Assembly (NCBI GenBank): GCA_024137785.1
Contig: JAHRHZ010000024.1
Span: forward strand, 12,979,895-13,043,894
Length of the DNA: 64,000 nucleotides
Reading direction: 5' to 3'
Source: Ginglymostoma cirratum
Taxonomy: Eukaryota
Made by a program: the position numbers and the translations under genes. Below the pieces are notes generated by a model. The model was not told where the DNA came from and searched no databases. It saw only the letters and a list, made by a program, of their open reading frames with translations. This document shows, piece by piece, positions 1,404 to 64,000 of this stretch (positions are counted from its first letter, which is position 1; each line of letters starts with the position of its first letter).

Positions 1404-1530
1404 ATTTTGCAAGCTTTTTGAGCCAACCAGGTGGACCACTAGTACGCAACTACTTTTGTAACTCCAAATCTGAAAGCCTGGATCTCGCACACCCACTGGA
1501 ATTCACAAAAGGAAGCTTTCCCAGATATCA

Positions 1531-1590
1531 GCCTGCTCCTATGATGCTGCTTGGCCTGCTGTGTTCATCCAGCTCCACACCTTGTTATCT
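1531..1590 (+). mobile_element. Young Penelope-like pLTR micro-insertion (60 bp) with 15-bp TSD
   Basis: cctgctcctatgatgctgcttggcctgctgtgttcatccagctccacaccttgttatct flanked by ctttcccagatatca at 1516-1530 and 1591-1605. Confidence 0.9.
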
Positions 1591-1637
1591 CTTTCCCAGA
1601 TATCATGCTGGCTCAGATTGACACCATGGGACCCAGC

Positions 1638-1985
1638 AGGGATGGAGTGGTTATGTCACTGGACTGGTAATCTAGAATTCCGAGCAAATGATCTGCAGTC
1701 ATGGGTTCAAATCCCACCATGGCAGATGGTGAAATGGGAATCCAATAAAATCTGGAATTAACAAAATAATGGCCAATTAACCATTTGTCAATTGCTGCAA
1801 AATCTCACCTAGTTCAATAATTGGCCAATCTTAGCAGATCTGGCCTACAAGACCTAAGGCCCACAGATATGTGGTTGACTCTTACCTGCCCTCTAAAGTG
1901 GCCTAAAATGCTATGTGGTTCAAGGGGTGTGCAACAAATGTTGGCTTTGTTAGCAAACCCCACATCCTTTTAAGAATGGCAAAAA
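1638..1985 (+). mobile_element. tRNA-derived SINE with LINE-type 3' tail
   Basis: A-box-like gagtggttatgtcactgg, B box ggttcaaatccc; body (gtggttgactctta.ctgccc) also seen at 22385-22710 and 52548-52685. Confidence 0.75.
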
Positions 1986-2727
1986 CTGATCCAAATTCAA
2001 CAGCTGAATGTTATAATAAACTTAAAATATTTAATTACACCAAATGTCATTGCAGTGGTGTATTAGGTGTCACCCAATAAATCCCTTGAACTGAATAATC
2101 AAAACAGTCCAAATAGACAAAAACTGTGAAATACTATTGTTTAATTAGTGTCAAACCACAGTGAACAAACTAATGTTGAATGAAGCCGCCAACTTTTTTT
2201 ACCTTGATAAAATAGTTAACTCAAGCACCTGGTTCTGACTTCAGAACACAAGCCCCCATAATGTTATCTATGGATGGGATTTTCCAATTTTCTTCTGAAA
2301 GTGGGGCTATGGGAGTAACCATTGGGTGTGGGATTTCCCCAACACCAGAAACAGGAAAACCGAAATGATGCGGCACCTAACAGACTCCTGAGTGGTCAGC
2401 ATGTAGGCTTCTTGGTGCATCACTTCCTGGCACAGTGATGTTCTGCCAATTCTGGCCAATCAGTGGCCAGCAGCTGCTGTGAGCAGCAATGTCGCCTCAG
2501 AAATGAAGGCCAGCTGGGGGAACTGGCAAGGCAGGTTACTTTACATATTTGGGCAGGGGTTGATCATAGGGAAAGGGCAATTGGGAAGGGTTAGAGATGG
2601 GGAGGAGAATGGCTTCCATCTTTGCCCACCATCCTCCTCAGTCACTCCCAGATTGTGGCCAACCAAGCAACCCTGATCCCACCACCCTGAACAAGCTTGA
2701 AACAAAGTTAATCACAGCAGTGACATG

Positions 2728-2741
2728 GAGAGAGACAGAGT

Positions 2742-2773
<32 letters not shown>
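2728..2773. repeat. (GA)n microsatellite, imperfect
   Basis: Direct reading. Confidence 0.95.
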
Positions 2774-3002
2774 TAGCGGGAACTGCCGATGCTGGAGAAT
2801 CTGAGATAACAAGGTATAGAGCTGGATGAACACAGCAGGCCGAGCAGCACCAGAGGAGCAGGAAAGCTGATGTTTCGGGTCTGGATCCTTCTTCAGAAAT
2901 TTGTTTTTTCTGAGGGAGGGTCCAGACCTGAAGCGTCAGCTTTCCTGCTCCTCTGATGTTGCTTGGCCTTCTATGTTCATCCAGCTCTACACCTTGTTAT
3001 CT
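2770..3002 (-). mobile_element. Young Penelope-like inverted pLTR pair (palindrome) with 34-nt tail
   Basis: Arms ~2804-2900 and ~2905-3002 are reverse complements; tail only on the left arm (2770-2803); possible TSD gacatggaga at 2722-2731 and 3007-3016. Confidence 0.9.
2866..2900 (-). ncRNA. Minimal type I hammerhead ribozyme core (PLE-type), partly decayed
   Basis: Minus strand reads atttCTGAAGAaggatccagacccGAAAcATCagc. Confidence 0.6.
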
Positions 3003-3213
3003 TAGAGACATGGAGACCCTGAAGTGGTCATTAATTAACTGCATTAAGTTCTAAATTGGAGACAGGCTGAGCTGAAACTCAGGCCTTTCTGCTGAAAAAA
3101 TTAATTCCTGTGATGGTGGTAAAGAGGCAGATATCTCCCTGATCCCAATCTGACCAATCATCTTCCCATCCCTTCACCTCCTCTGCTGTTGCTAGGGACG
3201 GGAATACTCTGTC

Positions 3214-3302
3214 CTCTGTTCCTTCTCTCAGATGTGCCTGATCTGAACATTTGCAGCATTTTCTCCTTTTAATTCTGATTCGAGCACCTACAGTGTTTTG
3301 CC
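3214..3302 (+). mobile_element. Old Penelope-like pLTR remnant with tail
   Basis: tctctcagatgtgcctgatctgaacatttgcagcatttt...gattcgagcacctacagtgttttg resembles the right arm of 21757-21943. Confidence 0.45.
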
Positions 3303-4824: not shown

Positions 4825-5640
4825 CATAGAAGCAAGGAAGAGAAATCCATCAAGCCAAAGGAGCAGATATATAGAGTGGTGGCCAGAAGTTTGCTTCAAG
4901 AGACAGCTCTTAAGTGAAATCCACAAAGTAGGAGTGAGATATAGAGAGGTCGGCAGAAGAAATTCCACAGGAGGAAGTGGCTTAAGGCACAGGCACCAAC
5001 TGAGGGCAAAGGGAACTCGCAAGAGGAATGGTAAAATATACATGGAGAGAGAGGAGAGGAAGGTTGGACCAATCAAGAAGGTAAAAGAGGTAGGGAGAAG
5101 ATGCCCAGGGAAAAGTAAATAAATACAAGATTATAAAGAGAAGCTGGATAGACTGGGACTTTTTTTTTTCAGTGGAGCTTAGGAGGTTGAAAGGTGACCT
5201 TACATAGGTTTAAAAAATCCCGAGAGACAGAGATAAGGTGACTGTCAGGTGTCTTTTCTCCCTTGGGTGGGGGATTTCAAGACTAGGAGGCATATTTTTA
5301 GGTGACAGGAAAAAGATTTTAAAAAGACTTGAGGGGCCTTTTTTTTTACACAGAGAGTGTTTCACGTGTGGAATGAACTCCTACAGGAAATGGTGGATGT
5401 GGGTACAATTACACTGTTTAAAAGATATTTAGATAAGTATATGAATAAGAAGTATTTGGAGGGATATGGGCCAAAAGCAGGGATTGTGGTCTGCCTGGAC
5501 TGGTTGGACTAAAGGGTCTGTTTCCATGCTGTATGACCCCATTAAAAATTTTAAAGCTTTTCAGGCCTGGGACCTATGTACATCATGAAAAGCTGGAGTG
5601 TTGATCAAGAGGACGTACAGGTATGGGATACAGGAAGAGG
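4825..5640 (-). mobile_element. L2-type LINE 3' region, interrupted by a HER1/CR1 insertion
   Basis: Similar to the L2 pieces at 46790 and 60685 (agccaaaggag...ggtggccagaagtttg...gaaattccaca); resumes at attaaaaattttaaag after 5541. Confidence 0.5.
5125..5541 (+). mobile_element. HER1/CR1 LINE 3' end
   Basis: Encodes decayed Y.E.LDRLGLF...RRL.GDL C-terminus; ends gggtctgtttccatgctgtatgac; near reverse complement of 10709-11129. Confidence 0.9.
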
Positions 5641-6132
5641 TTGTTAACTTTGGTTTCTTGATTTTTAAGGCTCTCCACAGATTGACAGCCTCATCTGCCT
5701 GGCTCCTTTAGCTCTAAGGTAAAAATTATGACAGCTGCATGCATGAGAGGTTATTGAAACAGGAGATCGGATGTTGCTGCACAGATCACTTTTGCCCACA
5801 GAAACTGAGCAACAAAGCCAAGTACTATTGAAAAAGACTCTGATGATATCTAAAATCCAAGTAACAACAGTTGTAAACTCCCTCCTTACCAGAGGTCTCT
5901 ATTGTCCTGGCAAGAGCAATTTCTTCAGCCTGAGAATGACAAGCAAATATGCAAATTCTATGGCAGACTAAAAATATTTCAGCAATGAGTAAATCATGTT
6001 CAAATCAGCACAAATTATAATCAAAACACTGACTCCAACACGCATGTTCCATGTCACAAGTATCCTGAAATAAAAACACGATTCAATCTAGTCTACTGTA
6101 TTAGCAGCTTGAATGCTCACTAGTTGACATTC

Positions 6133-6430
6133 AATCCATTCTAGACTACTATATTCACTGCTCACAATGTGGTTTCCTCTACACTAGGGGGATGGAACAC
6201 AGACTAAGCGACTACTTTATGAAGATTCTCGACTTTATCTGTAAGACTGACTCCGAGCTTCCATTTGTCTGCCATTTCAACACGCCACCATGTTGCCATG
6301 CCAACATTCCTGTCCCAGGCCTGCTGCAGTGCCCCAGCAAAGCTCAACACAAACAGCAGGAACAACACTCATCTTCCACCGATGTACCTTACAGCCATCA
6401 GGACACAGCATTGAGTTTAACAACTTAGAA
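6133..6430 (+). pseudogene. Penelope-like GIY-YIG endonuclease C-terminus, frameshifted
   Basis: Translates YYIHCSQCGFLYT...HRLSDYF...ELPFVCHFNTPPC...GLLQC...EQH / LIFH..TLQPSGHSIEFNN, the PLE endonuclease pattern (CxxC..YIG...R...H..HF...E...I....tl.P.GLN). Confidence 0.85.
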
Positions 6431-8205: not shown

Positions 8206-8276
8206 AAACACAGTTATTCTAATCTGCAGGAAAGATCTCCTATTTAGCTTTTGACCCATCAGAAAATACCTTTTAT

Positions 8277-8340
8277 ACGTTAACTCTGTTTTTTCCTTCA
8301 CAGATGCTGCCAGACCTGCTGAGCTTTTTGTTTTTGTTTC
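8277..8340 (+). mobile_element. Old Penelope-like pLTR fragment starting at the hammerhead cleavage region
   Basis: acgttaactctgttttttccttcacagatgctgccagacctgctgagc. Confidence 0.65.
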
Positions 8341-8738: not shown

Positions 8739-8743
<5 letters not shown>

Positions 8744-8777: not shown

Positions 8778-10708
8778 GGATGGACTCACCTGTAAAGTTC
8801 AGAAAAATCTTAAGAAAGCCCTGAAGAATGATAGCACAATGCTTTCTACAGTTTGTGTCCTCTCAAAATTCACCTCCATGGCTATGTATCCAAGTATAAA
8901 TGCTAACTATTATTTAAACCCCCAAATACATTCTAATTTGGAATTAAACAGACAGTATAAAATCTCACCATTTACAAGACTTGACATTGTTAGCACTTCC
9001 CTGTGAATCAGAGAGTAAGTGTCTATCCCCCAACAGCACAGCTGCCCTGGTCATTATTTACACTTACAAATTCCTTTCACCTTCATTCCAAATAGATGAC
9101 CTGCATTCCACCTTAATGACCAAATGTGTTATTAGGAAGAATTCAGAGCGGGTCATTCGAGCCTCCTTCATTCCTCCATTTGCCCAAAGTTAAAGACAGC
9201 CTCAAAATACAACAACCTTATAACTTAATGTTTGCATGTTTGTCTCTATCTAGTTCCAGAGAGCTAACAGCATTTACAATAAGCGAGCATTTACAATACT
9301 CCTTAATACTATAACCCATTTATCAGTTGTGTTTTAAAAGCTGAGCAGAATGCAGTAAGCTAGTTGAGCCAGACATGAGAACAACTCATTTATATTTTTG
9401 ATGAATTCCCACAAAAAAATTTGCATTTTCCCAGTTATGGAGACATCTTCCAGTATATATTACCCTATCTACACTATTTTTATAGCCTTCTGTTACAGTT
9501 TTTTTTCCTATTAGATGTGCTAATAGGCACTTTATTAGGTGATAAAGAATACATCAAGATTGCTGATGTACAGTGAAGTACATTTTGCCAAAAGCCCCCA
9601 TTTGCTTGAACTCCCCTGGCTCCAGAGTTACATTAGTGTGGAAAGTGCACTTTGTGTAATTTTTTTTAAGGAGAATTGTCAAGAAGTTTCAGCTCAACAC
9701 CATCAGCAATGCAGTGATGCAATCATATCTGCCACTCTTCATTTTCATCTTTGGTGGAAAATAAATTGCCTTCAAAGAAACAAAAGTTTGAACTACAAAT
9801 GGAGAGTTTTCTTCAGAACAAAATTGACAGTACTCCAAACACAGTAGCAAGGTCAACGAAGCAGACTGTCTATGGGTCTTCCATGAATTGAGCATGTCTG
9901 GCATTCCCTCAGCAATATCATTGCAGGGGCAACACCAGCTTGCAACGCTTCACTCATACAAAACAAAACGCTTTGACAGTTAGCAGAAAATCACTAGCTC
10001 CTCTTTCACAAAGCATTTTCTGCAAGATCATTTAAAGTAAATAATTTGCTGTTTTACAGTTTTGAGACTCAGCTATCTGTAACATAAAAGGATGGATGAA
10101 ACCCACAAATCAAAGGGTGAAGTAAAACTAACAAATGTCATTACGGCCCTTCAATATCTCGCTTACTTGCCACATTAACCTTTTAAAAACATCCTGTAAC
10201 ATGAACCCAGCATCTCCTTTGTCATTTGCCTTCTAATGGAAGTTTGATTAGGCCACTAAAGCTCAAGTGGTGTTCTTTTACTGCAATGCTGTAAACTCTC
10301 TGATCCCCAAGGTAATCTATCTCATGTAGGAGTGTTTCAAAATGCCTGAGCTTTTACCGTGGCTTCCTTTTCAATTCTTCACAATAAAAAGAGGCAAAAC
10401 CACACATGTGGTATATTTCCGTAATACGCTGCCCATCTACTAATCACTGCCCATCTACTAATCATACTTTTTCGTTGGCATAGGCAGTGCAGTGAATAGT
10501 CCACTGCATTAAGGCCATCAAAGCACTGCACCAGAATGGCAACGGCCTTGAGTGAAGAACTAATCATTCTCAAATTTATTTCTTCTTTCTCATAAGACAA
10601 ATCTGAAGTAGTAAATATCAAATCAAAATGGAACAGCTTTTTTCTCAATGGCCCATTTTGAAAATGCCCTTCCGTTAAAATACAAATTGAGACTGTAATT
10701 GAATATTA

Positions 10709-11129
10709 TAGAGTCACAGATTCATGCGGCATGGAAACAGACCCTTTGGTCCAACCAGTCCTTGCCGAACTAAACTAGTCCCACCTGCCTGCTCCTGGCC
10801 CATATCCCTCCAAACCTTTCCTGTTCATGTATCCATCCAAATGTCTTTTAAACATTGTAATTGTACCCACATCCACCACTTCCTCAGGAAGTCAATTGCA
10901 CATGCAAACCACCCTCTGTGTAAAAAATTTGCCTTTATGTCTTTTTTAAATCTCACTCCTCTCACCTTAAAAATGTACCCACCAGTCTTGAAATTCCCCA
11001 CTTTAGGGAAAAGACAACTATCATCAATTCTATCTATACCTCTCCTTATTTTATAAACTTCTATCTGGTCACCTCTCAAACTCCTACACGCCAGTAAAAA
11101 AATTCCCAGCCTATCCAGCCTTTCTTTAT
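10709..11129 (-). mobile_element. HER1/CR1 LINE 3' end
   Basis: ORF 10825-11079: RGDQIEVYKIRRGIDRID...LFPKVG..KTGG..FKVRG, CR1 ORF2 C-terminus; HE1/HER1-type tail. Confidence 0.9.
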
Positions 11130-11660: not shown

Positions 11661-11765
11661 AGATTAAGAACAAAAACAGAAGTTGCTGGAAAAGCTCAGC
11701 AGGTCTGGCAGCATCTGTGAAGAAACTTTAAAGTCAACTCTTTCGATTCCATTACCATTCCTAAT
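11661..11765 (-). mobile_element. Old Penelope-like pLTR fragment
   Basis: aacaaaaacagaagttgctggaaaagctcagcaggtctggcagcatctgtgaag is the reverse complement of the 8277 type. Confidence 0.65.
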
Positions 11766-14221: not shown

Positions 14222-17115
14222 ATCATAAGACAATAAGATGCACGCATAGAACAAGGCCATTCAGCCCATCACGTCATGGCTGCCCTGACAAACTCTCAGG
14301 TCTATTTTCCTGCACTACCTCCATAGTATTTGATCCCTTTACTCAAGAAAACTCTGTCTCAGCCTTGAATATAATTAACTACCCAGCCTCAACAGCCCTT
14401 TGTGGTAAAGAATTCTACAGATTCTGTACTCTCAGGGAGAAAAAAAGTCCTCTTGTGTCTTAAATGGGCAACTTTTAATTTTGAGATTATACTCTCTGGT
14501 CCTAGGTTCTCCCTCAAAGGGAAATAAGCTTTACGCTTCTACTCTGTCAAGCTCCCTAAGAGGTTAAGTGTTTCAACAAAATTGCCACTCATTCTTCTAA
14601 ACTTCAATGAATACCAGCCCCATCTACTCAACTTCTCATCATTAGAAAATCCCTCTATATTGGGGATAAACCTAATGAACCTTCTCTGGACTGGGTGCAA
14701 TGCCTTTGCCATCTTTCCGTAGAGACAGGGACCAACATTTAACACATTTCCAGGTGTGGTCTGACTGGTGCTTTTTTTCAAAGAAGTGTCATTCTGGACT
14801 CAAAATGTCAACTATTTCTCTCTCCAGTGATGCTAACAGACCTATTGGGTTTTCCCAGTAATTTGTGTTTTTACTTCCTATTTTTATACTCCATTCCCTT
14901 TGAAATAAAGGCCATCAATCCATTTGTCTTCCTGATTTCCTGCTGAAATTGGACGCTAGCTTTTTTTGTGACTCATGCACAAGGACATCCAAATCCGTCT
15001 GTGCTTTGGTTTTCCTTCTACATTTAAGTAACATTCAGCACTTCTATTATTTCTGCTGAAAATGCACAACCTCACATTTTCCCACAATATATTCCACCTG
15101 CAAGATTTTTGCCCACTCACTTAGCCTATCTATATCCTTCTGCAGACCCCTTTTGTCAATCTCCCCTTGCCTTCACTCTTATTTTTGTGTTATCCATAAA
15201 CCTGATGATAGTACATTCACCTCTATCATCCAGGATTTTTGTATCTATTACAAATAATTGTGGCCCCTGCACGTTGATACCTGTGGTGCTCAATGTGTTC
15301 CAAGTTGCCATCCTGAAAAGTCCCCTTTAATCACAACTCTGTTCAATTAGTTAGCCAATTCTCTGTCCCTGCTAATATACTACCTCTAAACAGCATGGGC
15401 TCTTATTAAGTAACCTCGTGTACAGTATCCCATTGAACACCTTTCAGAAATGCAAGTATAATGCATCTACTGGTTCCTCTTTTTATATATATATGTATAT
15501 ATGTTACCATCTCAAAAATTAGGAATAAAGTTGTCAGGCATGATTTCCCTTTCATGAAGCCATGATGAGGTTTTTTTTGGATTTTATTATGTATTTCTAA
15601 GTGCTCTCCCATAACATATTTTGTTATAGACCCTAACGTTTTCCCAATTACATATGTTAAGCAAATTGGTCTATAGTTACCTGTTTTTCTGTCCACCACC
15701 CTTTTTGAATAACAATGTTACTTCAGCAGTTTGCAGTCTTCTGCGGCTTTTCCTGAACCTAAGGATCATTGAAAGATTCATACCAGTGCATTCGCTATCT
15801 CTGCAGTTACTTTCTGTAAAATACTAGGATGCAAACTATCAGATCCAGGGGACTTAGCAGATTTTAGCTCCATTAGTTTCTCTAGCACTTATATTCTAGT
15901 GATAGTTTTCTGCGCTTATTTTATTATCTTCCTTTAGATCCTTGATTATTTAGTACTTTTTAAATACAATTAGTGTCTTCAACACTGATGTAAAGTATTT
16001 ATTCAACTCCTCTGCTACACCCTGGTTCTCCATCATTATTTCCATAGTCTCATTCTGTAAGTGGCCTATGCCCACATACTTCTTTTTTATATATTTAAAG
16101 AAGTTCTTACTGCCTTTTTTAAAAATTACTTGCACATTTATATTTGGTTTATTTTCTCCCTATTTGTTACCTTTTTGTTCATCTTCTATTGGCTTTTAAA
16201 ACTCTCCCAGTCTTCTGATTTACCTCCAACCTTTGCCACATTTTGTCTCTTATTTTCTTTCAGTTTGATACCATCCGTATCTTGTTGGGTTAACCATTGT
16301 CAGTTTATTCCCTTCCTTCGATCCTTTTTCCTCACCGGAATATATCTTTGCTGTGAGTCATGAATGGGTTCTTACAAATCTACCATTGTTCCTCAACTAT
16401 ATTTTCTGCTAAAGGTTGTTCCCTGTCCACTGCAGCCAATTCTGCCCTCATTGCTTTGCAATTATCTTTATTTAAGTTTACTTCAGTTGTTTAGAACCCA
16501 AATTTCTCACTCTCAAACTAAATGCTAAATTGTACCACGATATAGTCAGGATTCCCCAGAGGATCTAATTACTCCATGATCCTTTTTAAATCTGCTTTAT
16601 CACACATTACCTCATCCAAAATAGCATGATCCCTGGATAGATCTATAATGTAATGTTCCAAACACACTCTATGGATTCTTCCTTGTAGCTACATTTGTGA
16701 ATTGGATTTTCTCCAAACTGCATGAAGAATAATGGCACCCATGATTAATGTACTACCTTTCCTTCATGTCCCCGTTATCTCTGATTTATTCTTTGTGCTA
16801 CCATATTGCTACTGTTTTGAGCCTTTAGACTGTTCCCATCATTGTCTTCTTCCCCATGTTTTTGCTTACCTGCGCCCATATTGGTTCTATATCTTTCCAT
16901 TTCTTGGTACCATACTTACTTATACTAGCAAAGCTACCCCACCACCCTTCCAATTTATGTCTATCCCTTCAAAAAGTCACATATTCCTGAATATTTAGTT
17001 CCCAGCATTGATTTTTATGCAACGCTGTCTCCATAATAACTATAAGGTCAAATGCAATAACCTCTATCTGCGCTGTTGATTCATTTATTTCGTTCTGAAT
17101 AATGGATGCATTTAC
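14222..17115 (-). mobile_element. CR1 LINE, most of ORF2 (APE endonuclease + RT), decayed
   Basis: NASIIQNEINE..AQIE..FDLIVIMET (APE start), KNFFKYIKKK, GNYRPICLT..GK...HGFMKGKSCLTTL (RT), VQRRFIRFIP...LSRWG.YSLKFRRM.G (C-terminus); stops and frameshifts. Confidence 0.93.
14778..14875 (+). mobile_element. Old PLE pLTR with decayed hammerhead, nested in CR1
   Basis: aagaagtgtcattctggactcaaaatgtcaactatttctctctccagtgatgctaacagacctattg. Confidence 0.6.
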
Positions 17116-19969: not shown

Positions 19970-20052
19970 TAAGTATTGATAATTTCAAGAAACAGATATA
20001 CTTTGAGCGATTAAGTATTGATAATTTCAAGAAACAGATATACTTTGAGCGA
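19970..20052. repeat. Perfect tandem duplication, 41-bp unit, period 42
   Basis: taagtattgataatttcaagaaacagatatactttgagcga at 19970-20010 and 20012-20052. Confidence 0.97.
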
Positions 20053-21756: not shown

Positions 21757-21943
21757 CAAAGTGCAAGAGAACTCCAGTGGGTCTGGCAGCACCTGTGGAG
21801 AGCAAAATAAAGTTAACATTGCCACCCCATATTACCGCTCAAAATGTCAACTATGTTCCTCTCTTCACAGCTGTTGCCAGACCTATTGAGTTTCTCCACT
21901 GTTTTCTCTTTCAGATTTCCAGTATCTACAGTGTTTTGCATTT
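21757..21943 (+). mobile_element. Old PLE inverted pLTR pair with tail
   Basis: gggtctggcagcacctgtggagag...gttaacatt versus aatgtcaact...cacagctgttgccagacct are inverted arms; tail cagatttccagtatctacagtgttttgc on the right only. Confidence 0.75.
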
Positions 21944-22021
21944 ATTTGTCAAGTTCTTAAACAGGTTCTGTCTTTTTACAAATGCATCCCAACTCAATGG
22001 GAGATATTTTTTAAATCTTCC

Positions 22022-24960: not shown

Positions 24961-25525
24961 CTGTCCACGAACTCCCACATTCTGCAATCCCATCACATCT
25001 GGAGAATAGTCTTATTTAATTAATTCAGCAAATTGAAGTCTTTATTTGATGATCGTTTGTAGTTATATCCAGTCATCTAAGTACTTGACCTACAATTTAA
25101 ATAGTGGTTATATTTCTGTTATCCAAGTTTAAACTACTGCTCTAGGCTAAAGGATAAATAACATTTAAAAATTCAGCAACCTTCCAACTCTACACCTAAT
25201 CATTGCCTGTAAACTTCAGTTCTCAAGTCTCCACTGGCCCCATTCCATCTCTTGTACACAGTTTTGTCAAAGACTTGACAAAGTACCTCTCCCTTCACTG
25301 GACCAAATTACTTCTGTAATTCTTTAATTAATTCCCCAAGTTAACTATGCACTGAATTGAATATGTTCTTAGCTGACCTAGGCTTCTTGCTACTTTGTAC
25401 ACCAAGGAAAACTCCTTCATTTAAGCTAGCTGAAATAGCCAAGAACTGAGCCCTTGCTGACCAGGTAAGCAGTTTGAACCATTTACTCAATTAACTAAAT
25501 ATATCCAGCTTCATTCAGGAAGTAG

Positions 25526-25793
25526 ATAACAAGGTGTAGAGCTGGATGAACACAGCAGGCCAAGCAGCATCATAGGAGCAGGAAAGCTTGACATTTTGGG
25601 CCTAGACCCTTCTTCAGAAATGGGGGAGGGGAAGGGGGTTTTGAAATAAATAGGGAGAGAGGGGGAGGCGGATAGAAGATGGAAAGAGGAGAAGATAGGT
25701 GGAGAGGAGACAGTATGAGAGAGTTGCAGTGGGAGAGAGATCCACTGAGGTTTTTCCGGAGGGAGGAGGGTAACTCCTTCAGGGTAGGCATCC
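25526..25793 (-). mobile_element. Young PLE insertion (268 bp), internally deleted, 11-bp TSD
   Basis: TSD tcaggaagtag at 25515-25525 and 25794-25804; pLTR with decayed hammerhead (GAAA to AAAA) at 25585-25620; purine-rich UTR segment. Confidence 0.9.
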
Positions 25794-27769
25794 TCAGGAA
25801 GTAGGCTGTTTACTAATGAGAGTGAAAAGAACTACATGTTAAAAAGTTATTAAATACTGAATGCACAAGATAATTCCATTTTAGAAACCATTAAGCCTAA
25901 CATTCTTTCACTCACCAAATTTCCCAAGTACCCTGCTGAAGCAGTGCTTGTCAAGCTAAATTTCATGTAACATTGTGCTCAAGTGAAAACTCCTCTTTCA
26001 AATGTTTTGCTATGATTTCTCCTGGTACATAAGCAGTTAGCTAACCACTCTAATTTTGGACTCTGCCTGTGCTTTAAGGCTGGCATATTGGTGAGACACT
26101 TGACCACTGCCTTGTGGAGAGGTTCTCATTAGAACAGTTTTCTCCAAGAAAACATGAATGCAAAATGCAAATGTCAAGAAATAACAACCCAAATCATTAA
26201 ATTTATTCTCAACTTTGTGACAATCAGGTAACTTATACACAGATGAAACAAAGCCAAAAGCATTGCTGCAAGAGGGATCGTACAAGAGAGCACAATGCAG
26301 CTAATCATGAATAAAGATAGTCCTCTAAATGAGGGCTGAGACCCCTTGGACAATATCCTGATCTGGATAATATTTGTCTATCATCCCAACCGGAAATAGG
26401 CTCTAGCCAATATTGGGCCAAAGGTGTTTGTTTAGACTGCTACTGACACTTCAAATTAAATCAGATATTTCACAAGAGAAGTGTCATGAAGGAAATCCCA
26501 AATCATTTCTCAATAGCCAAATAACTGTTCTCCATTCTTGGATCAGATTGAAAAGCAGTAGAAGCAGATCTAACAGCTGTTTAGTGTAACCTTCACTCAC
26601 AGCCATAGACCCACAGAATAGAAATCAGCCAAACATTCAGTGTTCTACCATATATATAGATTTTAAAAAGCCTGAAAACATCAGGATTCTGATAACTGTG
26701 TAGGTGCACTGAGCAGCTGAGCAGTTTGCAGGTAACTCTGCTTTACGAATTCAGTAACATAATAACCATGCTGTAATACTCTGAGCTTCTGTAACAGAGA
26801 GATGCATAATAAGTACCACAAAAGAAAGGGGTCAAATGACAAAAAAAAATTTAAAGGGGTTGATTGACTACATTTTACTCTGTAAAGTTAGTCACCTCAA
26901 TGACGAAAATGCCTAGTTTCCATGGAGTATGAATACAGATCATAAAATGGATTCCTATCACCTACTTAATCAGTATCTATGCATATGTGCGTACGCATGA
27001 ATTGAGCTAGACACAATACTTTGCCCAGAGCCACAGCCTGACTACAGTCACTGACAGTCCTATGGAGAAGAGCTCTTTGTGCAAAATATGAGAGGTTACT
27101 CCCATCTGTGAAACTGTAAACCTACATTCTTCACTGGTTTCATCACAGTAAACATGTTGACTGCCTGTGTTTCAAACAGACAGTAGAGTTGAGTCATTAA
27201 AGCAATCTCGTTTCATTCCCTTGTTCCCAAAGTCCTGCAAGACTTTTTCCCTTAAAGTCCTTATCCAATTTCCTTCAGAAATTATTGATCACCTCCATTT
27301 CCACCACCCATATGCACCGACACAAAATATCAGCTTTCAGCACAACTCATATTCTTTTCTTCAGAGTAAGAAGTCTATGCATTATCACGTGCTCCAAATG
27401 CTGGTTTGTGACTCGGAGCAAGAAACTGCTGTGAAGACCTATGCTCCTACACATACCAGTCAAAAAACTTAGCGAGGGCAAAGGAGCAGCTGTTGCAAAA
27501 AGTAGCCCAATGCATTCTCTGCCTTACAACAATAGAATGTCAACAGCAATGGATTAAAAATTGGTAATTTTTTAATGTTAATAGAATGTGTTATGTTCAC
27601 TGGCTGTTATGTTTGTACACATTACTGTAATGATATTCTGAGGGCAAATTACTAATCACAGAATGTACAAGGTGCTATGTCACTGTGACTATGCATAGTT
27701 ATGTTCGTGGGACATGTAGTGCATAGGCTAATGTTATGTTGTTTGCGTGCAGTTATAATATTTTCAACA

Positions 27770-31660: not shown

Positions 31661-31665
31661 TAATT

Positions 31666-32125
31666 ATAGAGTCAGAGAGTCATACAGCATGGAAGCAGAC
31701 CCTTCAATCCCACTCATCCACACCGCCCAGACATCCCAATGTGACCAAATTCCAGTTGCCAGCATTTGGCCCATATCACTCTAAACGCTTCCTATTCATA
31801 TGCCCATTCAAATGCCTTTTTAATGTTATAGTTGTACCAGTCTCCACCACTTCCTTTGGCAGCTCATTCGATAGATGGACCACCCTCTGCATGAAAAGCT
31901 GCCCCCTAGATCCTTTTTAAATCTTTTTATGCTCACTCTAAACCTATGTCCTCTAGTTTTGGACTCCCCCACCCGAGGATAAAGACCTGGGCTATTCATC
32001 CGATCCACGCCCTTCATGATTTCATAAACTTCCATAAAGTCATCCCTCAGCTTCTGATGTTCCAGGGAAAAGAGCCCCAGCCTATTCAGCCTCTTCCTAT
32101 AATTCAAATCCTCCTATCCCAATAT
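31666..32125 (-). mobile_element. HER1/CR1 LINE 3' end, tail-to-tail with previous copy
   Basis: YRKRLNRLGLFSLE..KLRDD.MEVYEIMKGVDRMNS..LYPRVGESKTRGHRF. Confidence 0.92.
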
Positions 32126-36830: not shown

Positions 36831-36924
36831 TGTTCTCTCATGCAGTGCAAAAGTTGGTTTTCCCTTGAATTTGTATCCTTGTGAATTGTCCTGTTAAACG
36901 CAAGATAATAAAGCTTTAATAGAA

Positions 36925-37138
36925 ATAACAAGTGTGCAGCTGGATGAACACAGCAGGCCAAGCAGCATCAGAGGAGCAGGAAGGCTGACGTTTCTGGCCT
37001 ACACCCTTCTTCAGAAATGGAAGGCTGACATTTCGGGCCTAGATCCTTCTTCAGAAATGGTGCTTGGCTTGCTGTGTTCACCCAGCTCCACACCTTGTTA
37101 TCTCAGAATCTACAGCATCTGCAGTTCCTAATATCTCT
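36925..37138 (+). mobile_element. Young PLE insertion: inverted arm, duplicated hammerhead unit, direct arm and tail; 14-bp TSD
   Basis: aagctttaa(t/c)agaa at 36911-36924 and 37139-37152. Confidence 0.9.
36981..37060 (-). ncRNA. Tandem pair of minimal hammerhead ribozyme cores (2 x 40 bp)
   Basis: Minus strand ccatttCTGAAGAaggatctaggcccGAAAtGTCagcctt-ccatttCTGAAGAagggtgtaggccaGAAAcGTCagcctt. Confidence 0.7.
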
Positions 37139-37204
37139 AAGCTTTAACAGAATGTTTTTTTTTTGCGGCAATTCTTTATAAGTGTAGTTGCTACAGGAAT
37201 GTAA

Positions 37205-40372: not shown

Positions 40373-40478
40373 GGAGCAAATTACTGCAGATACTGGAATC
40401 TGTACTGAAAACAACAAATGGGTCAGACAGCATCCATGGATACAGAGCAAGCTAACGTTTCAAATCTAAATGACACGT
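40373..40478 (-). mobile_element. Old PLE pLTR insertion with 13-bp TSD and decayed hammerhead
   Basis: caga(a/g)agatggaa at 40360-40372 and 40479-40491; minus strand CTGAcgtgtcatttagatttGAAAcGTTagc. Confidence 0.7.
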
Positions 40479-41024
40479 CAGAGAGATGGAAATTGGAAGC
40501 AAAGTTACTGGTGTTATCCAGTTAGAAGCAGGTGCAGAAAATTGCATCAATATAGTCAGCAAAGTACTGGGAAGAGTTGATGGAGGGCCTGACTATAATT
40601 GAAACAATAAAAAATGTATTTACTTGAAGTTCTTTAACATACCATTCAGGGTACATTCAGTATTGTTTCATTGTAGCATTGTACATCTAACTTTGAGACA
40701 CTTTTGAGAGGAGATCTTGCAGCACTGTCATTGCATACCTTACTCTGAGCCAGAAGTTCAGGGTTAAAGTTACATGCCAGAGCTTGTTGGCCACGGAAGA
40801 TAACTGAAGAGTCAATTGTCAGTCTCTCAATGCTTCCAATACATGTAATGAGTGGTGGTAACAGCAGGAGTGGTAATCAACAGTGTCTCCTGGTCAGGCA
40901 TCCAGCAAAGGCAATAGCAAAGCACAGCTCTGCCATGCTCATAGATACGGCACAGTCCAAAAAAGGTCAAAGGCCTAACCCTCATAAATGTGATGAGGAA
41001 AACAGACAGACAGATACTTCTGAG

Positions 41025-47190: not shown

Positions 47191-48338
47191 ACATAAGGAT
47201 GTGAAGGAGCCACACATGAAGCAAGTCACAGAAATTAGCACCCAAGCTCTAAACCTAAATATCAGAATCTTAAAATAAACAACCCATACGGCTTTGTTTT
47301 TCATTTCATATGGAACACATTTTGTTTAATTATTTTAAAATAAATATGCTAACGTGAACCCCATCTGGTTCCCATATACTTCATATTAAAAGCACAGCCT
47401 GATGACAATCTGAGCTGCTTACACTAAGTTGGAAAACATAATTGTAACACCACATCTATGGGCTGAGGGAAAATGAAAGCTTGGACCACCTCATTGGGTG
47501 AGAGAGCGAAGACACCAATTGAGCGAGCACTTCAAGCTAATGACAACAGCAATGCTACTAGCACTTTCTGACCAGGCTCTCCACATTCCATAGTTATTCA
47601 ATTACTTTGGTTTTGATGCCAGTATGCTGTATCAAATCTTTGCCATCCCAACCCTGTATTAAATTCAAGGTAAAATCCAAGCATCAACTGGCAGAGACAC
47701 GGCATGAAAACCATGTTAGCAATTCAGCTTGTCATTGTCCTTGGACGAGTCTGATTATGATATACGAAGTTGTCTGTCTAATATTTGTAGTGAAAGTGTA
47801 AAAGAAGAATCTTGAATGGAACTCATACTAGCGGTGCTGCGCAGAACAGGAAGTGAGGCGGTTTGTTGGGAGGCATCGGGGAAAGCCTGCCATTCAGAAG
47901 TAAGTGCATGGGTACAAGAAAGGCAGGTGTGAGAGGTATGCTCGAGAACAGAGCTAGGAACACATGGGCATCATGTGGGTAGGTACAGTAGCATAGGTGG
48001 GTGGGTAACAGAAGAAAGGTGAGGAAGAAATGATCTTGTATACATAGCAAATCAAGTCATACTTCCACCTTAATTCCAAGTTAAAGAACATCTTTGTGAC
48101 TTCTCCTATTTTATACAACAGCTGGTCTTATAGTCCATCAGAGATTGTTACTTTAACATTCATTATTTCCTGCTTACACATAGTTTTGTGCAGTGGGATG
48201 AAAAATATTTGCAATTGAAAGTCAGTGTTATCTAAATACATTTGTGGTAGGTCAAGCTCCAACTGCAAAAGATGGGATTTCCAACCACTCAGCAGGGGAC
48301 GGATTCATACCAACCACAACACAAACCAACAAACAGTG

Positions 48339-48425
48339 AAGGGTTTAGGCCCGAAACGTCAAGTTTTCCTGCTCCTATGATGCTGCTTGACCTGCTGTGT
48401 TCATCCAGCCCCATGCTTGTTATCT
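48339..48425 (+). mobile_element. Young PLE pLTR micro-insertion (87 bp), 13-bp TSD, truncated inside the hammerhead core
   Basis: ccaacaaacagtg at 48326-48338 and 48426-48438; begins aagggtttaggcccGAAAcGTC. Confidence 0.92.
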
Positions 48426-49664
48426 CCAACAAACAGTGTGTTGATATGTTAAGGTTTAGAATTGATCTACTCCATCAGTGACTGGGGTTAAAACCAACAT
48501 TGTAGGATTTTGCCAGCAAAAGGATTGCTGGGAATTTCAAGCAGTCCAAAGCTTTTCCAAACAGTCATCAATATTGTCTGAGGTGTCTGTATAAAAGCAA
48601 AGTTGAACCGTCTACGTTTTAAGACAGAAGTGGTCATCCTTTTGAAAGTTTCACATTACCATAGCAAGCCAATTGGCTTCAGGGTGACCCCGCACAATGA
48701 GGGTATTTAAAAAAAACACTTGCTATCAGCAGTGAGTCTCTTCTCTTTCAGCTACTATGACAGAGAATCAGCTGTGTCACAGCCAATATATCAAATCATC
48801 ATTGGCGCAGGCTTACGACCAATCAAGAGTGTTTCTCTAACTGGCTCCAAAATGTCAACCATGCAACTTCAGATTTCAATTTCTTCAGTTAAGAAGCAAT
48901 GATCTATTTCCTTGTCTTACTACTAGCTGTTAAGTTGAACGTACATAAAGTCCTAAACCTGTAATAATGACTGAACAACTGAGCTCCTTTTTAAGGATGA
49001 TCAAACAGTACAAAAGCAATTATACTCTCAGACTGCTATGTACCCTGTCCCCATTAAATAAGTCACAGCATCATACTTCAATAGAACTATAGTGAACAGT
49101 GGATGTGAGAATATAACACATGTTCCGGATTGAGGAATTTACAAAAGCTATCCCCTCACCTTTTAAATCATGGTCTAGTTTGGCTAAGGCTTAAAAATCA
49201 ACAAACAGCCAACAGAAGGAGGAAAGGTTTCTGGAGATGTATTTTCTTACTTTTCTGATCCTTTTTTGTCAATTTTAATTTTTATACCTCAGGCTTAACA
49301 CTTCCAGTGATTTTTTTCCAATTTTTTGAAACACGTACTTGCAAAAAATGTCCCCAAATCTTGTAACGTATCTTCAATTTTCAAATAATACGTTTTATTT
49401 GCAAGTCAATCTTTCATGCCTTCTCTGTCACTATCCCTTTCTCCTTCTGCTTAAGTCTATACCATGCAGATGTGCTTGACATTTGTCACATCATCGCTTC
49501 TAATACCTGTTAAATTCATTCTACCTTTCTCATTTTCCCCAACAAGTCTCCTTTTCTCTTGCCTTGAAAAGTCACCATTGCCACATTTTGGAGAAGCGTT
49601 AAGATAAACCACTTCGGGAGGGGTGAAAAGGCACGGGATTACACTATGAATAATAGGACTGTGG

Positions 49665-50740: not shown

Positions 50741-51140
50741 NNNNNNNNNNNNNNNNNNNNNNNNNNNNNNNNNNNNNNNNNNNNNNNNNNNNNNNNNNNN
50801 NNNNNNNNNNNNNNNNNNNNNNNNNNNNNNNNNNNNNNNNNNNNNNNNNNNNNNNNNNNNNNNNNNNNNNNNNNNNNNNNNNNNNNNNNNNNNNNNNNNN
50901 NNNNNNNNNNNNNNNNNNNNNNNNNNNNNNNNNNNNNNNNNNNNNNNNNNNNNNNNNNNNNNNNNNNNNNNNNNNNNNNNNNNNNNNNNNNNNNNNNNNN
51001 NNNNNNNNNNNNNNNNNNNNNNNNNNNNNNNNNNNNNNNNNNNNNNNNNNNNNNNNNNNNNNNNNNNNNNNNNNNNNNNNNNNNNNNNNNNNNNNNNNNN
51101 NNNNNNNNNNNNNNNNNNNNNNNNNNNNNNNNNNNNNNNN
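50741..51140. other. Assembly gap (400 N)
   Basis: Run of N. Confidence 1.
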
Positions 51141-51233
51141 TCAAGCTTTCCTGCTCCTATGATGCTGCTTGGCCTGCTGCGTTCATCCAGCTCCACACCT
51201 TGTTATCTCGGATTCTCCAGCATCTGCAGTACC
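51141..51233 (+). mobile_element. Young PLE pLTR 3' end with tail, abutting the gap
   Basis: tcaagctttcctgctcctatgatgctg...ttgttatctcggattctccagcatctgcagt. Confidence 0.9.
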
Positions 51234-52547
51234 TTTTACCTTTCTCATTCCTGGAATCATTATTATAAATTGCTTCTGCACTCTCTCCAATATATTCAGA
51301 TCTTTCCTGTAATACAGCCCACAAAGCTGTAGACAATATCCTAGCTGCAGTCTGATAAATTAGTTACACAGGTTCACCTCCTTGCTCTTGTACTTTCTGT
51401 TCCTATTAATAAAGCTACACACACTGTGTTATTAATTGCTCTCCACCTATCCTGCCACCTTCAATAATCTTTACATATATACATCCAGTCCAAAGAGAGA
51501 ATTCAGAAATGCAAGTCAACACAAAGCTATACCCCTCCACATTATGCAGGTGCTTTGAACAATTTCCTGTGAAATATTTTGTTGCTACTTGCATCATTAT
51601 TTGATTAAGCACTCTGGCCCAGATATAAACAAAACAGTGCTTGGAAAACCCAAGTAGCTGGTCTAAAAGGGGTTCTGCCAAACCTAAGCAGCAGGATCTC
51701 ATTATAATGATGATCTCCTGTTTTCCAATTACTTCCAACCTGTTTGAAAGGCATGCAGCTGGGGGGAAAAATATCAGCAACTAAAAACTGCAGCCCCAAT
51801 GAATATACAACGGGATGGGAGCTTGAAATTGGGACCTAGTAAACAAGGTGAGGAGGAAGGTCACAGCAACCACAATGGAAGGCGAGTCTTGTGCTAACAG
51901 TTGCGTTGGTGGTGATAGAGATGGTGATGACTGGCCGCAGGTGGGTGCTGTAGGGTGGGGGCATTGCTTCTCATCCTGGTCCATAAGCAGTGTTACAAAA
52001 CAGACTTATCTGTTGAAGCTGGTTTTGGCATCGTTGAATACATTATCCATAGACCCTGTCCAGGCTCGAACAAAAGTGAAAATCATCAATTTGGCAAGTA
52101 TTACCCTTTCTCATCCAGAACTGCTGAAGAGGGAACTTGTATCACAACTCAGCTGATTACAGTCACTACAAGTTAGAAAACAGGTAACAAATAGGAAATC
52201 TTCTATGGTCTGCGGAAATTAATGCTATACGGATGTGCCATATCTATCTCAAATAATGGGTCAATAGTGATTGGTCTATGACATTACGATTTAACTTTTA
52301 ATTTGGAATGCTAGTATTTAACAAATTACTTCCAAAAAAAACAAAATCTCATTGTTTTAATGAGGAAACAAGAAGATAACCATTACAACAACAACAAAAG
52401 TGTAGTGGTGAGAGAATCACTAAGCTTTATGACAACAAAGACATTGAAATGTTCCTTTCTTTTGTTATTATTCGAACCACAGCAAACCATTCTTTTCAAC
52501 AGCCAGAACACAAGAACTTCCTAAATCAATACAGCCACTAAAAAAAA

Positions 52548-58919: not shown

Positions 58920-59452
58920 AGTTCAATTCTGGTCTCCCTGCTACAGCAGAGATGTTGTTAAACTTGAAAGGGTACAGAAAAGATTTACATGGATGGTGCC
59001 AGGATTGAGGGTTTGAGCTATAGGGAGAGGTTGCATAGGCTGGGGATATTTTCCCTGGAACTTCAGAAGTTGAGGAGAGACCTTACAGAGGTTTGTCAAA
59101 TCATGAGGGGCATGGACAGGGTGAATAGCCAAGGTCTTTCTCCCAGCGTAGGGAAGTCCAAAACAAGAAGGCATAGGTTTAAGGTGAGAGGGGCAAGATA
59201 TAAAAGGGGCTAAGGAGCAACTTTTTCAGAGGGTGGTGCATGTACAGAATGAGCTGCCAGAGGAGGTGTTGGAGGCTGGTACATTTACGATATTTAAAAG
59301 GCATCTGGATGGGTACATGAGTAGGAAGGGTTTAGAGGGATATGGGCCAAATGCTGGCAAAAGGGCCTAGAATAATTGATTATCTCTTCAGTATGGATGA
59401 GTTGGACCAAAGGGTCTGTTTCCATGCTATACAATCCCATGATTCTATGACT
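58920..59452 (+). mobile_element. HER1/CR1 LINE 3' end
   Basis: GLSYRERLHRLGIFSLE..KLRRDLTEV..IMRGMDRVNSQ.L.P.VGKSKTR.HRFKVRG; ends catgattctatga. Confidence 0.92.
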
Positions 59453-59667
59453 AGATCATATGGCATCTACAATACAACACGTTAAAACTTAAGACATACC
59501 TACCAGCTTCACTTTGAGACACCATGGAAACAAACTGCTGTGAAATATAAAAAAAATGGCCTAATTCGCAAATTAGGCTTTGAGTTGTTTGCCCCTTTTA
59601 CACACCCCAGCTTGTGGGAACATTATACAATATTGGTTTTCTTGTACTGAAATCTGATTACTAAAAA

Positions 59668-60340: not shown

Positions 60341-60684
60341 TCTCCAAGAGATGGTACTAGACAGAAAATTATGGTCTGGAATTTCCTGGAACTGCACTAT
60401 CAGTAACGGACACCATGAATTGAGTTATATTCTTTCATGCAAACCTCAAGAGAAAATTTTCTGGGCAAACATTTTGATAATGCCACAATAATCAAAATGA
60501 CTAAAATTAGGACTCAATGGCAGGCCCCATCTGCATCAATGACCAAATGGGACAGATCAATATTGGCATGATCCAAGTCACAGATGTGAAATACAAATAT
60601 ATTCACCACATCAAACCTGACAAATTACAGAAAAAAGTCTCAGTTCACTCACTTAGCTATGGTATTCAGAATTAACAACCATTC

Positions 60685-62150
60685 TTAAAAAACAACATTT
60701 GTGGACCATATTATTGTAACAAAATCTCACAAGGTTCTTCACATGAAATAAAGTACGAAAGCAAGCCATGTAAAGAGATAGCTTTAGGGCCAATGTCCAA
60801 AAGCTTAGTGAAACAGATGAATTTGAAGGGATGTTTTAGAGAAAGAACACATGATCAGGAGGTTCAAGAAGAGATTTCTAGGGCTTAGTCTCTATCCGTG
60901 CCCTCAAGTGTCCCTAGTGTGGAGTAATTAAAATCAGCGTTGCTTAAGAGGCTAAAATGAAAGGAATGGAGATATCCCAGAGGATGGGGAGGCCGGTGGA
61001 GATTCCCAAGATAGAGAGAGAGAGATGAGGGCATGATGAAATTTTAAAGCAAGGACAAATCAAGATATTGCTTAACCAGGGACCAACACAGTGAACATAG
61101 GCACTGGAATAGTCAAGACTAAAACAATGTCCTGCAACATGCTCACCGCTCACCACTTGCAGAACTAGCATCACATTGCAAGTCAGTCACAGGCCTGTTG
61201 AGAATGGTAATTCTTCATAATTGTCGTAGCCTATTCCATTTAGCAATCTATGGCAACATTTACAGTAGAAAATCCTGCATGGAAAGAAATCTTTAACACT
61301 AAAAGAAATGTGGCCTTATTGGATTAAGGTATATGGTAAAGATGCTGCCGTAAAGGGAATGTTGAAATAATTTTGTTGTTGTTCCTCAACAAGATGCCAT
61401 GTGGTTACTGGGTGAAAATTATCTTTTGACAGTTGTCACAGTGCAGTGCATTATTTCTCAGCTCTTGTGCTGTGGATTGTTACAAGATTCACTATCCCAT
61501 CTGGTAAATATGCTGGAAATATTGTGATGAATATAATGACCTGATCGTCACAAGTTTGGCAAGCGACAAAATCCTATTGAACAACACTGGTGTCAAAGTA
61601 ACAAAGAAAGGAATAAGAGTTTCAGCAAAAGTTGACCCAAGACAGGGGTGAAGTTAGATGAAATTATGGAGGTAGAAATACACATACAAATGTGCAGACA
61701 TGTTGAAATTAATACTGACACCAAGGCAGTGAACAGTCTAGTTTACTCTTAGTTTGCAGGAAGAATTACAGAGTTAGTAGCAAGAGGATGGGAGCTTGGA
61801 ATGAGGACGGAATGAGGAGCTTCAGTTTTCCCAATGCATGAATGGCAGACATTTTCGCTCACTTAGTACTGGATGCTGGAGAAGCAGTCTGATGATTTAG
61901 TGACAATGATGGAGTTGGGAAAGGAGCAGCGATGGCAGGTATCATCAGAGCACATACGAAACCTAACATTGCTTTTGGATGACATTGTTCAGGTTCAGCT
62001 TGTAGATAAGAATTAAGAGGGGACCCAGGATAGATCCATGAGGGACGGAATGGTATGAGAAGAGTAAGACAAGCCATTTGAAGAGATATTGTGTCTGCCA
62101 CTGAACAAATAACAATAAAACCAGGTAGTAGAAGTGCCACCCAGTTACAG
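60685..62150 (-). mobile_element. L2 LINE pieces (~60685-61100 and ~61610-62150)
   Basis: Parallels 46790-47190; aagaggggacccaggatagatccatgaggg = PQGSILGPLL in reverse. Confidence 0.65.
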
Positions 62151-63169
62151 ATTTAATTTATTTTCTTATTTATTTAGAATGAGATTTATAATTCAACTGG
62201 CTTGGAAGTCTCCAGAGTAAACAAACCCTCAAGGTCAACAATGGCATGTCCACAAACATTGTTGGCTAAAACCAGGCACAGAATAAAAAAGGGCACTTAA
62301 GAATCAGAATACAAGTATTTGGATGAATATTGATTCAAAATTAAATAAAATATGAGCAAAGATTCAATTTTACTTTCATAAATTCTGAACGTGTCATAAT
62401 ATTCACAACGCAAAATTTATTCCATGATTTTGCATTTTCCTCGAGCTCTATTACATGCTGGAAATATTTTTATGGGAAAATGTCAACATTTACTTTAATT
62501 ACATATGTATAAAAATCCATTCATGTGCCCCAGTCCCTAAAAATGAAGATCCACATTTACTTTGGTTCTTCTGGACAGAAAATCACACAAGAGCCAAGTA
62601 AGTGCAATGAAATAAAATTAACAAAAATCCAGTATTGTGGTGAATGCCATCAACTGGAATGTGGGTTGTTGAGCTATTCAGAAATTTTTACAGAAGTGTC
62701 TAAGCACTAAAAAAGCTCTAGGAAATATAAAATAATATAAATTGTGGTAATACCCACTTACACCATAATTTCCTCAGTGTTCTGGAAGCCTGGAAAATGA
62801 ACACCATCATCGATGGGCCACTCCAGTCTCCAGAAATTTGCGATTTAAATCACGTGAGTGGTTTGAAACTCTCACATTTCGAAATAACAGATGGGAGTTC
62901 TACTACTCAGCCAAGGTTAATATCTCCACAGTACAGCCTACAGAGAACATTAAAAAAACTAAAAGTTCTGTTACACTACCAGATGCACTCAGGCAATTCA
63001 CTGAGGCAGATGTAATCCAACTTCAAAATGCCGACAGCCAGCATTTGGTCCTAGATCTATGTTCCAGTTTCAAATGCCAACCAGTTCTGTGTTACATATT
63101 GCACTTTCTCACCACAGTACCCCACACTTGTCTATAATCAATCATACAGGGAAGGAAGGAGGAAGGGGA

Positions 63170-63545
63170 ACAAAATCTTTAATGGACCATACGACTATGG
63201 CTTTGGCTCCAGAAAGTGGAAAGAAACATCTACCAATACACCAGCATGATCGGACAAAGTCAATATCATTTCACAATAGGGAAATATAGTTTGGAAAATT
63301 TATTGGAACTTTTCTGAACTTGCACCAAATTGGATTGATGAAAAGCAATGAGTAAATGTACTCATATATGGATTACAAAATAGCATTTGAAATGGGCTTC
63401 ACAACATGTTGAGTATGTAAGATAACGCTTTATGGAGTTGGGTTAATATATCAAAACTGAGAGAAAGAATTAATCAGTGGACAAGGAGCAAACAGCAAGA
63501 CTAAATGGGCAATTTCAAGTTAGCAGGCTTCAACTAATGGAGAAT
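63170..63545 (+). mobile_element. Old CR1 RT fragment
   Basis: atcggacaaagtcaatatcatttcacaatagggaaa...aatttattggaactttt (I..SQ..F..GK....NLLEF). Confidence 0.6.
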
Positions 63546-63802
63546 CAACTAATATAATTGTAAATTAGAATTATATCAATATACAAATATACAATTATAA
63601 TTGCCAGAGACCTTCGAAACCTGAGGCTGCTCTCTTATTAGAGAGAAGTGACTGGTGGTGGTTTACCCTGAGGGTTACCACGCCGCAGGCAAGGGGAGAA
63701 GTTGAGATGGAGGCGTTTCCATGGTAACCTCAGCAAGTAGAAGGATTGAACTCACAGTGTTGACATCACTCTGCATTGCAAACCAGCTAACTGAGCGTAC
63801 CA

Positions 63803-63961
63803 GAGATAACGAAGTGTAGAGCTGGATGAACACAGCAGGCCAGGCAGCATCAGAGGAGCAGGAAAGCTGACATTTCAGGTCTGGACCCTTCTTCAGAAAA
63901 TGCCCACTGCGAAGCCTCCTTGTTAGCTCAGATTCTCCAGCATCGGCAGTTCCTACTATCT
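63803..63961 (+). mobile_element. Young PLE insertion: inverted arm, short linker, tail; 16-bp TSD
   Basis: ctaa(c/t)tgag(c/t)gtacca at 63787-63802 and 63962-63977. Confidence 0.88.
63865..63900 (-). ncRNA. Minimal hammerhead ribozyme core
   Basis: Minus strand ttttCTGAAGAagggtccagacctGAAAtGTCagct; catalytic residues retained. Confidence 0.65.
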
Positions 63962-64000
63962 CTAATTGAGTGTACCAACCTCTTCTTTCTTTAATTCTTT

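Follow-up and report, generated by a model that had tools for sequence, protein, structure and literature searches.

Insertions of the pLTR/leader junction of a Penelope-like element in the genome of Ginglymostoma cirratum

A stretch of 64,000 nucleotides from Ginglymostoma cirratum (assembly GCA_024137785.1, contig JAHRHZ010000024.1, positions 12,979,895 to 13,043,894 of the forward strand; the window, below) contains seven copies of a short repeat associated with a hammerhead ribozyme motif. Our reading, to which we give a probability of about 65%, is that these repeats are independent insertions of the junction between the pseudo-long terminal repeat (pLTR) and the leader of a Penelope-like element (PLE), and that the short copies most probably represent dead run-off cDNAs that cover the initial 100–135 nt of its transcript, made by internal initiation of reverse transcription. 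The element is real and of a known kind, and what we infer about its mechanism is testable. Element positions are numbered from +1, the A that lies four bases ahead of the CUGA core of the hammerhead, with the predicted cleavage site directly after +32; E1 and E2 denote 3′ ends at about +98 and about +133. L-numbers refer to sampled genomic loci, and X-numbers to contig runs of two related organisms, A and B.

Independent insertions and their parent element

The repeat unit was confirmed at all seven sites listed in an initial annotation of the window, which had regarded them as independent insertions and had placed six of them between direct repeats. Five of the seven have clear target site duplications (TSDs) of 11–15 bp; the repeat at the sixth, 2770, is tentative only. 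Among the 81 insertions in the window and the random loci, 58 could be evaluated for TSDs with a score of 9 or more, and 28 of these had one, compared with none of 341 shuffled flank pairs. Four sites (1531, 2770, 25526 and 36925) were compared with contigs of the related organisms, whose flanks have diverged by about 4% and 7%. At 1531, contigs of organism A (X1, X10) and organism B (X12) skip exactly 1516–1590, the insert plus one TSD. At 25526 an organism B contig (X12) skips 279 nt, again the insert plus one TSD, and organism A apparently has the same empty site, as judged from contig ends and not from a listed row. No contig bridges 36925. The TSDs and empty sites therefore indicate separate insertions, as had been proposed, two of which (1531 and 25526) are lineage-specific. 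At 2770 one organism B contig ends within the arm, which hints weakly that this insertion is shared. The insertions had also been called young, which overstates the case: arms differ from the majority base by a median of 6.5% (3.6% without CpG and subfamily sites), and 2 of 150 are identical.

Long copies reach upstream into an open reading frame (ORF). In L119 this is a stop-free frame of 1005 amino acids that terminates 263 nt upstream of +1. It contains DKG and YIDD motifs, a match to the reverse transcriptase (RT) domain RVT_1 that clears the cut-off (E 5e-7), and a GIY-YIG endonuclease domain, whose match is just below the cut-off in L119 (E 3e-4) and at the cut-off in L011 (E 1e-4). L119 is not an intact copy, since it has no start and its linker is partly out of frame. 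The linker preceding the endonuclease has the form CX4CxxC in the L011 frame and is not in frame in L119; a CX2-5CxxC linker is a mark of the Neptune and Nematis clades (PMC8557442; this and the other papers are cited here from parts of their text). The best protein homologues of the ORF are carpet-shark proteins, with 79% and 63% identity, which by themselves point to a carpet shark as the probable host, and a search of PDB sequences with the ORF gave no useful match.

In L182 and L165 the order is upstream pLTR, hammerhead, tail, untranslated region (UTR) and ORF start. Since the unit continues past the tail into the UTR and the ORF start, it represents the pLTR/leader junction. The pLTR occurs in partial tandem, a feature of PLEs. 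As far as sequence can tell, the parent is thus a PLE with RT and GIY-YIG endonuclease (EN+), Neptune-like by its motifs; its assignment to the Neptune/Nematis clade rests on these motifs. The PLE origin suggested by the initial annotation is borne out, in that the RT and GIY-YIG parent it sought ends in the unit. In six of 20 loci (L163, L169, L175, L176, L178, L180) the junction between an ORF-start fragment and the pLTR falls at about +255, give or take a few bases. A third priming or jump site may lie here, but this point was also the end of the query, and the clustering may reflect selection.

Random loci, after exclusion of unreadable sequence (41 of the first 100 were all N), yielded 74 insertions in 573 kb, or one per 7.7 kb. 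With seven insertions in 63.6 kb, one per 9 kb, the window is of ordinary density. One exact 36-mer of the unit occurs 30,161 times in the genome, a lower bound on the number of copies. Extrapolation from the random loci, in which 17 exact matches stand against 102 arms, gives about 1.8 × 10^5 arms, and density alone gives 3–6 × 10^5 insertions. As the two estimates disagree, we claim only that copies are of order 10^5. By hand count, 55 of the 74 random insertions contain no ORF sequence, which supports the earlier suggestion to the extent that most events leave no ORF; 39 consist of one piece no longer than 140 nt, in some cases cut by N or by a locus end.

Fixed ends, paired arms and the hammerhead motif

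The 3′ ends of 99 arms fell at two positions 35 nt apart, 48 at E1 and 44 at E2, with seven elsewhere. Many arms form head-to-head pairs, of which 52 were found. In 36 of the 38 classifiable pairs one arm ends at E1 and the other at E2, and this holds for 13 of the 14 pairs from random loci and the window. The two arms of a pair match at 151 of 171 subfamily sites, compared with a mean of 56% and a maximum of 73% after shuffling. Several pair junctions are short palindromes or overlaps, with gaps of −11 to +3 nt, and some arms are joined through UTR or foreign linkers. The head-to-head layout has been published (PMC3846280, PMC8557442); new here are the near-strict pairing of E1 with E2 and the shared source of partner arms. 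Linkers of 66–82 nt separate inverted arms at L022:1434–1501 and L021:1630–1712. The former duplicates DNA that lies immediately upstream of the insertion, which suggests that DNA of the neighbourhood was captured by templated copying.

For 5′ ends, 131 uncensored arms of 152 were tallied. Forty-seven stop between −2 and +6, a hazard of 0.061 per nt, compared with 0.019 at +7 to +14 and 0.003–0.010 elsewhere; 39 of the 131 continue upstream of this start region. The interval around the predicted cleavage site, +29 to +37, holds seven arm starts (hazard 0.007). Across the genome 8,953 exact junctions were counted at +1, where the prefixes let through about 0.64 of random flanks, and 611 at +33, where they let through about 0.2, and at least 6 of the 10 +33 junctions inspected (commonest type) were fold-backs onto an inverted arm. 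Many copies share a fixed 5′ start at +1/+2, in addition to the two fixed 3′ ends. These ends and the head-to-head pairs had all escaped the initial annotation.

The sole TATA-like 7-mer within 270 nt upstream sits at −31, and +1 matches the initiator consensus. A second family, with its own two 3′ ends, has a TATAAA-like sequence at −29/−31 in five of six long copies, and its TCAGTT initiator lies in matching register. Of 30 copies of this family, selected to span +6, 24 begin at that initiator. In a third family a TATA-like box and initiator occur at canonical spacing in one of two copies. A TATA box and initiator have also been noted in a rotifer pLTR (PMC3846280). At 5′ junctions additional T runs or a second copy of the first bases are frequent, which would be expected if the RT idled on reaching the end of its template. 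In L266, L278, L282 and L286 a second copy of the element's initial six or seven bases immediately precedes +1, which resembles reiterative copying at a template end. Two other origins of the 5′ end were considered and rejected. A splice acceptor is contradicted by the lack of a common exon upstream of 71 short arms and of AG at −2/−1, and a block by a G run in the cDNA by stops that precede copying of the C-rich tract.

The association with a hammerhead holds for the family, in which the core boxes, helix II and the palindromic helix III are recognisable. A strict minimal-hammerhead descriptor gave 30 matches in the random loci and 0, 0 and 1 in Markov controls, while a loose regular expression was too noisy to use. 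In the window the strict descriptor has no match, so that none of the seven copies passes; their motif is mostly broken or absent, and those at 1531 and 48339 lack all hammerhead sequence and CUGA, respectively. An Rfam scan gave no hammerhead match at E ≤ 5, and its best matches were by chance. As for covariation in stem II, which had been proposed as a check, no compensatory change was found within the family in 150 arms, only a one-sided U-G/U-A subfamily change and CpG decay; across four families helices I–III vary with pairing retained, by inspection. The core is intact in 66 of 150 arms and decays at CpG like neutral DNA. Thousands of minimal hammerheads per genome have been reported, most of them single and some lying close together on opposite strands, and their activity is reported to be low even in dimeric form (PMC4209133).

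Origin of the short copies

We propose the following pathway. RNA polymerase II would start at +1 under the TATA-like box at −31, as the genomic copies suggest. The element's protein would nick both target strands 11–16 bp apart and prime RT inside the RNA at E1 and E2, by analogy with PAc, the Poseidon element of Anolis carolinensis, which in vitro shows two internal RT starts bounding a tail, extension of both strands, shorter products from shorter RNA 5′ ends, and no need for hammerhead cleavage (PMC11167929). The mRNA is predicted to bear E1 and E2 both at its 5′ end and in a read-through 3′ repeat. From the 5′ copy, cDNA synthesis would run off after 98 or 133 nt; starts at the 3′ copy would yield long, variably truncated copies. 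Were both strands primed, each at a different site, the product would be a head-to-head pair in which only one arm is tailed, and template jumps could yield composites such as 25526 and the 40-nt repeat at 36979–37060. The hammerhead would be carried along uncut. As the promoter is left behind, such stubs would not spread by themselves.

Several observations count against this pathway. Starts at +33 may be slightly in excess. Since the compared families are relatives of one another, their agreement in TATA-like box and initiator is not fully independent, and the Penelope promoter of D. virilis is TATA-less, internal and upstream of an intron (PMC2377424). In a test for a G derived from the cap, by hand count, G precedes +1 in 49 and 37 of 100 listed rows, where about 23% is expected, but it also does so in 38 of 100 at the +33 control; of 30 G junctions inspected, many arose from inverted arms, repeated first bases or the TSD. 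The pairing rule omits 14 of 52 pairs as unclassifiable and includes one E1 + E1 pair, and 14 of the 38 pairs came from loci chosen for a tail. Finally, +1 coincides with the 5′ edge of hammerhead helix I, a position that a structural or protein-made stop would also fit.

This last point leads to a reading that we consider unlikely but not negligible, with the same parent and target-primed reverse transcription, in which +1 is a stop within a longer RNA, at the helix I edge or a bound protein, and not the transcript start. Positions +1 to +4 form the 5′ strand of helix I, about 45% of arms (39 of 86) pass +1, and the PAc protein aids hammerhead folding (PMC11167929). Helix I is, however, only 2–4 bp long, the first 175 nt fold no better than shuffled sequences (z 0.39), and two families, together with one of two copies of a third, have a TATA-like box and an initiator at canonical spacing. 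For the inverted pairs, self-priming on an antisense template, as modelled in PMC3846280, could replace priming on both target strands; the palindromic or overlapping junctions and the subfamily sites common to both arms would fit. It does not predict E1 with E2 in 36 of 38 pairs, nor arms joined via UTR or foreign linkers, and PAc extends both strands in vitro (PMC11167929), which makes self-priming very improbable in our view.

The initial annotation saw instead a SINE-like or retrozyme-like (SINE, short interspersed element) population; on this reading a non-autonomous family would spread via hammerhead-cut RNA. The very high copy number, the genuine minimal-hammerhead motif, the 611 exact junctions at the cleavage site and the report of retrozymes as PLE derivatives (bioRxiv 10.64898/2026.07.22.740005) would all agree with this. 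Arm starts do not peak at +33, however, where most inspected junctions are fold-backs, and the core is intact in fewer than half of the arms. Neither an A nor a B box of RNA polymerase III was found in the unit within one mismatch, and no tRNA; the absence of such a promoter had been correctly anticipated. No unit-length tandem array was present among the 81 insertions, only the 40-nt duplication at 36979–37060, which has damaged motifs. The three main subfamily haplotypes occur in both short (22, 19 and 6 of 60) and long (6, 7 and 13 of 37) arms, so the short copies have no private subfamily. In random and pattern loci the share of short arms by subfamily was 22/28, 19/26 and 6/19. Stubs with neither the upstream box nor a haplotype lineage of their own are best read as by-products, and as neither SINEs nor retrozymes; that the short copies are such a family seems to us the least probable of the readings considered.

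Beyond the run-off origin of the stubs, we see roughly even odds for a wider proposal, that PLEs make strong-stop-like cDNA. Priming near the capped 5′ end would run off at 98 or 133 nt, a dimeric enzyme would give each start site one target strand of one cut, and jumps of short cDNAs would build pLTRs and partial tandems; the 10^5 frozen intermediates in shark genomes would then map the transcript start and the priming sites. The proposal bears on the route by which PLEs, the sister group of telomerase, build pLTRs, tails and inverted repeats from an internally primed cDNA. If the fixed 5′ start is indeed the transcript start, the stubs make predictions to the base: a start at +1 and priming at +98 and +133, one site per strand.

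The element resembles EN+ PLEs of the Neptune/Nematis type (PMC8557442, PMC3846280) in its RT with DKG, its C-terminal GIY-YIG domain with an inner CxxC, its CX4CxxC linker and pLTR, and also in a 35-nt tail on one end only, an adjacent inverted truncated copy and TSDs of about 10 bp or more. It differs from them in having a single nucleotide at which a third of arms begin, in lacking the ORF in about three quarters of its insertions, and in TSDs of mostly 11–16 bp. With PAc it shares two internal RT starts about 100–135 nt past the hammerhead with the tail between them, priming of both strands, and a dispensable hammerhead. The PAc ORF begins inside the hammerhead, whereas that of the shark family begins about 170 nt after +1, and the parts of PMC11167929 cited here, unlike what we see in the shark, do not describe start sites that differ between strands or genomic copies that share a fixed 5′ end. 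The minimal type I hammerheads of metazoan PLEs (PMC4209133) likewise have CUGANGA, one bulged base, a G-C-rich helix II and a loopless palindromic helix III, and are mostly single with some close opposite-strand pairs; the shark motif, a predicted ribozyme, has a helix I of only 2–4 bp and copies of order 10^5, not thousands. Non-LTR retrozymes (PMC7229834, bioRxiv 10.64898/2026.07.22.740005) are also short, non-coding, hammerhead-bearing and PLE-related, with long TSDs, but they are tandem units with mostly canonical hammerheads that yield circular RNA, whereas the shark pieces are single or inverted and bounded by +1 and E1 or E2. In the open literature, covered mainly through listings and abstracts, we found no paper that describes run-off stubs or a fixed 5′ start for PLEs, nor one about the shark family; the genomic coverage in Fig. 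S2 of PMC11167929 may already show a 5′ pile-up. The stubs, of order 10^5 per genome, are best annotated as PLE by-products and not as SINEs, retrozymes or working ribozymes, and are usable as presence/absence markers among sharks.

The seven insertions and other repeats of the window

The size of 60–130 nt originally given for the insertions is true only of two monomers, both on the plus strand and ending at E1. The first, at 1531–1590 (60 nt; 1516–1605 with TSDs), comprises +39 to +98 between exact 15-bp TSDs (1516–1530 and 1591–1605). The second, insertion 5 at 48339–48425 (87 nt; 48326–48438 with TSDs), comprises +11 to +98 between exact 13-bp TSDs (48326–48338 and 48426–48438). A third plus-strand piece, insertion 6 at 51141–51234, comprises +31 to +124 with tail and adjoins an N gap (50741–51140) that swallowed its 5′ part.

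The insertions at 2770, 36925 and 63803 are inverted pairs of 161–238 nt. In insertion 2 a tailed minus-strand arm (2768–2900, +1 to +133, E2), whose hammerhead motif is altered in helices II and III, faces a tail-less plus-strand arm (2907–3002, +2 to +98, E1) with a broken hammerhead core; the two are 87% alike. Its tentative 10-bp TSD (2722–2731 and 3007–3016), with a GA microsatellite between repeat and element, failed the scripted test. Insertion 4 (36911–37152 including TSDs) has a minus arm from −1 to +98 (36925–37020, E1) and a plus arm from +51 to +133 (37057–37138, E2), with an additional tandem 40-nt copy of −1 to +39 at 37019–37057 and 14-bp TSDs with one mismatch (36911–36924 and 37139–37152). 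In insertion 7 (63789–63977 including TSDs) the minus arm runs from +2 to +98 (63803–63899, E1) and the plus arm from +87 to +133 (63918–63963, E2), and a short piece of the element's 5′ UTR lies between them at about 63902–63917. Its 14-bp TSDs (63789–63802 and 63964–63977; two mismatches) were read by eye, the right flank being too short for the script.

Insertion 3, on the minus strand, is a 268-nt composite (25515–25804 including TSDs) in which an ORF-start fragment, +165 to +254 (about 25708–25793), is fused to pLTR sequence from −91 to +98 (25526–25713). G12 of its hammerhead core is changed, and the 11-bp TSDs (25515–25525 and 25794–25804) are exact.

Further short remnants of related PLE families lie at 8277–8328, 11668–11719, 14783–14883, 21780–21947 and about 40440–40481. 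The one at 21780–21947 is apparently another head-to-head pair, so that PLE stubs in the window exceed seven. A decayed GIY-YIG fragment of an older PLE, 37% identical to the parent endonuclease (E 2e-9), is present on the plus strand at 6147–6365. The window also contains an exact tandem duplication of 42 nt at 19970–20052, and other high-copy interspersed repeats that are not PLE pLTRs at 1644–1939, 5342–5542, 10705–10927, 31663–32113 and 59007–59440.

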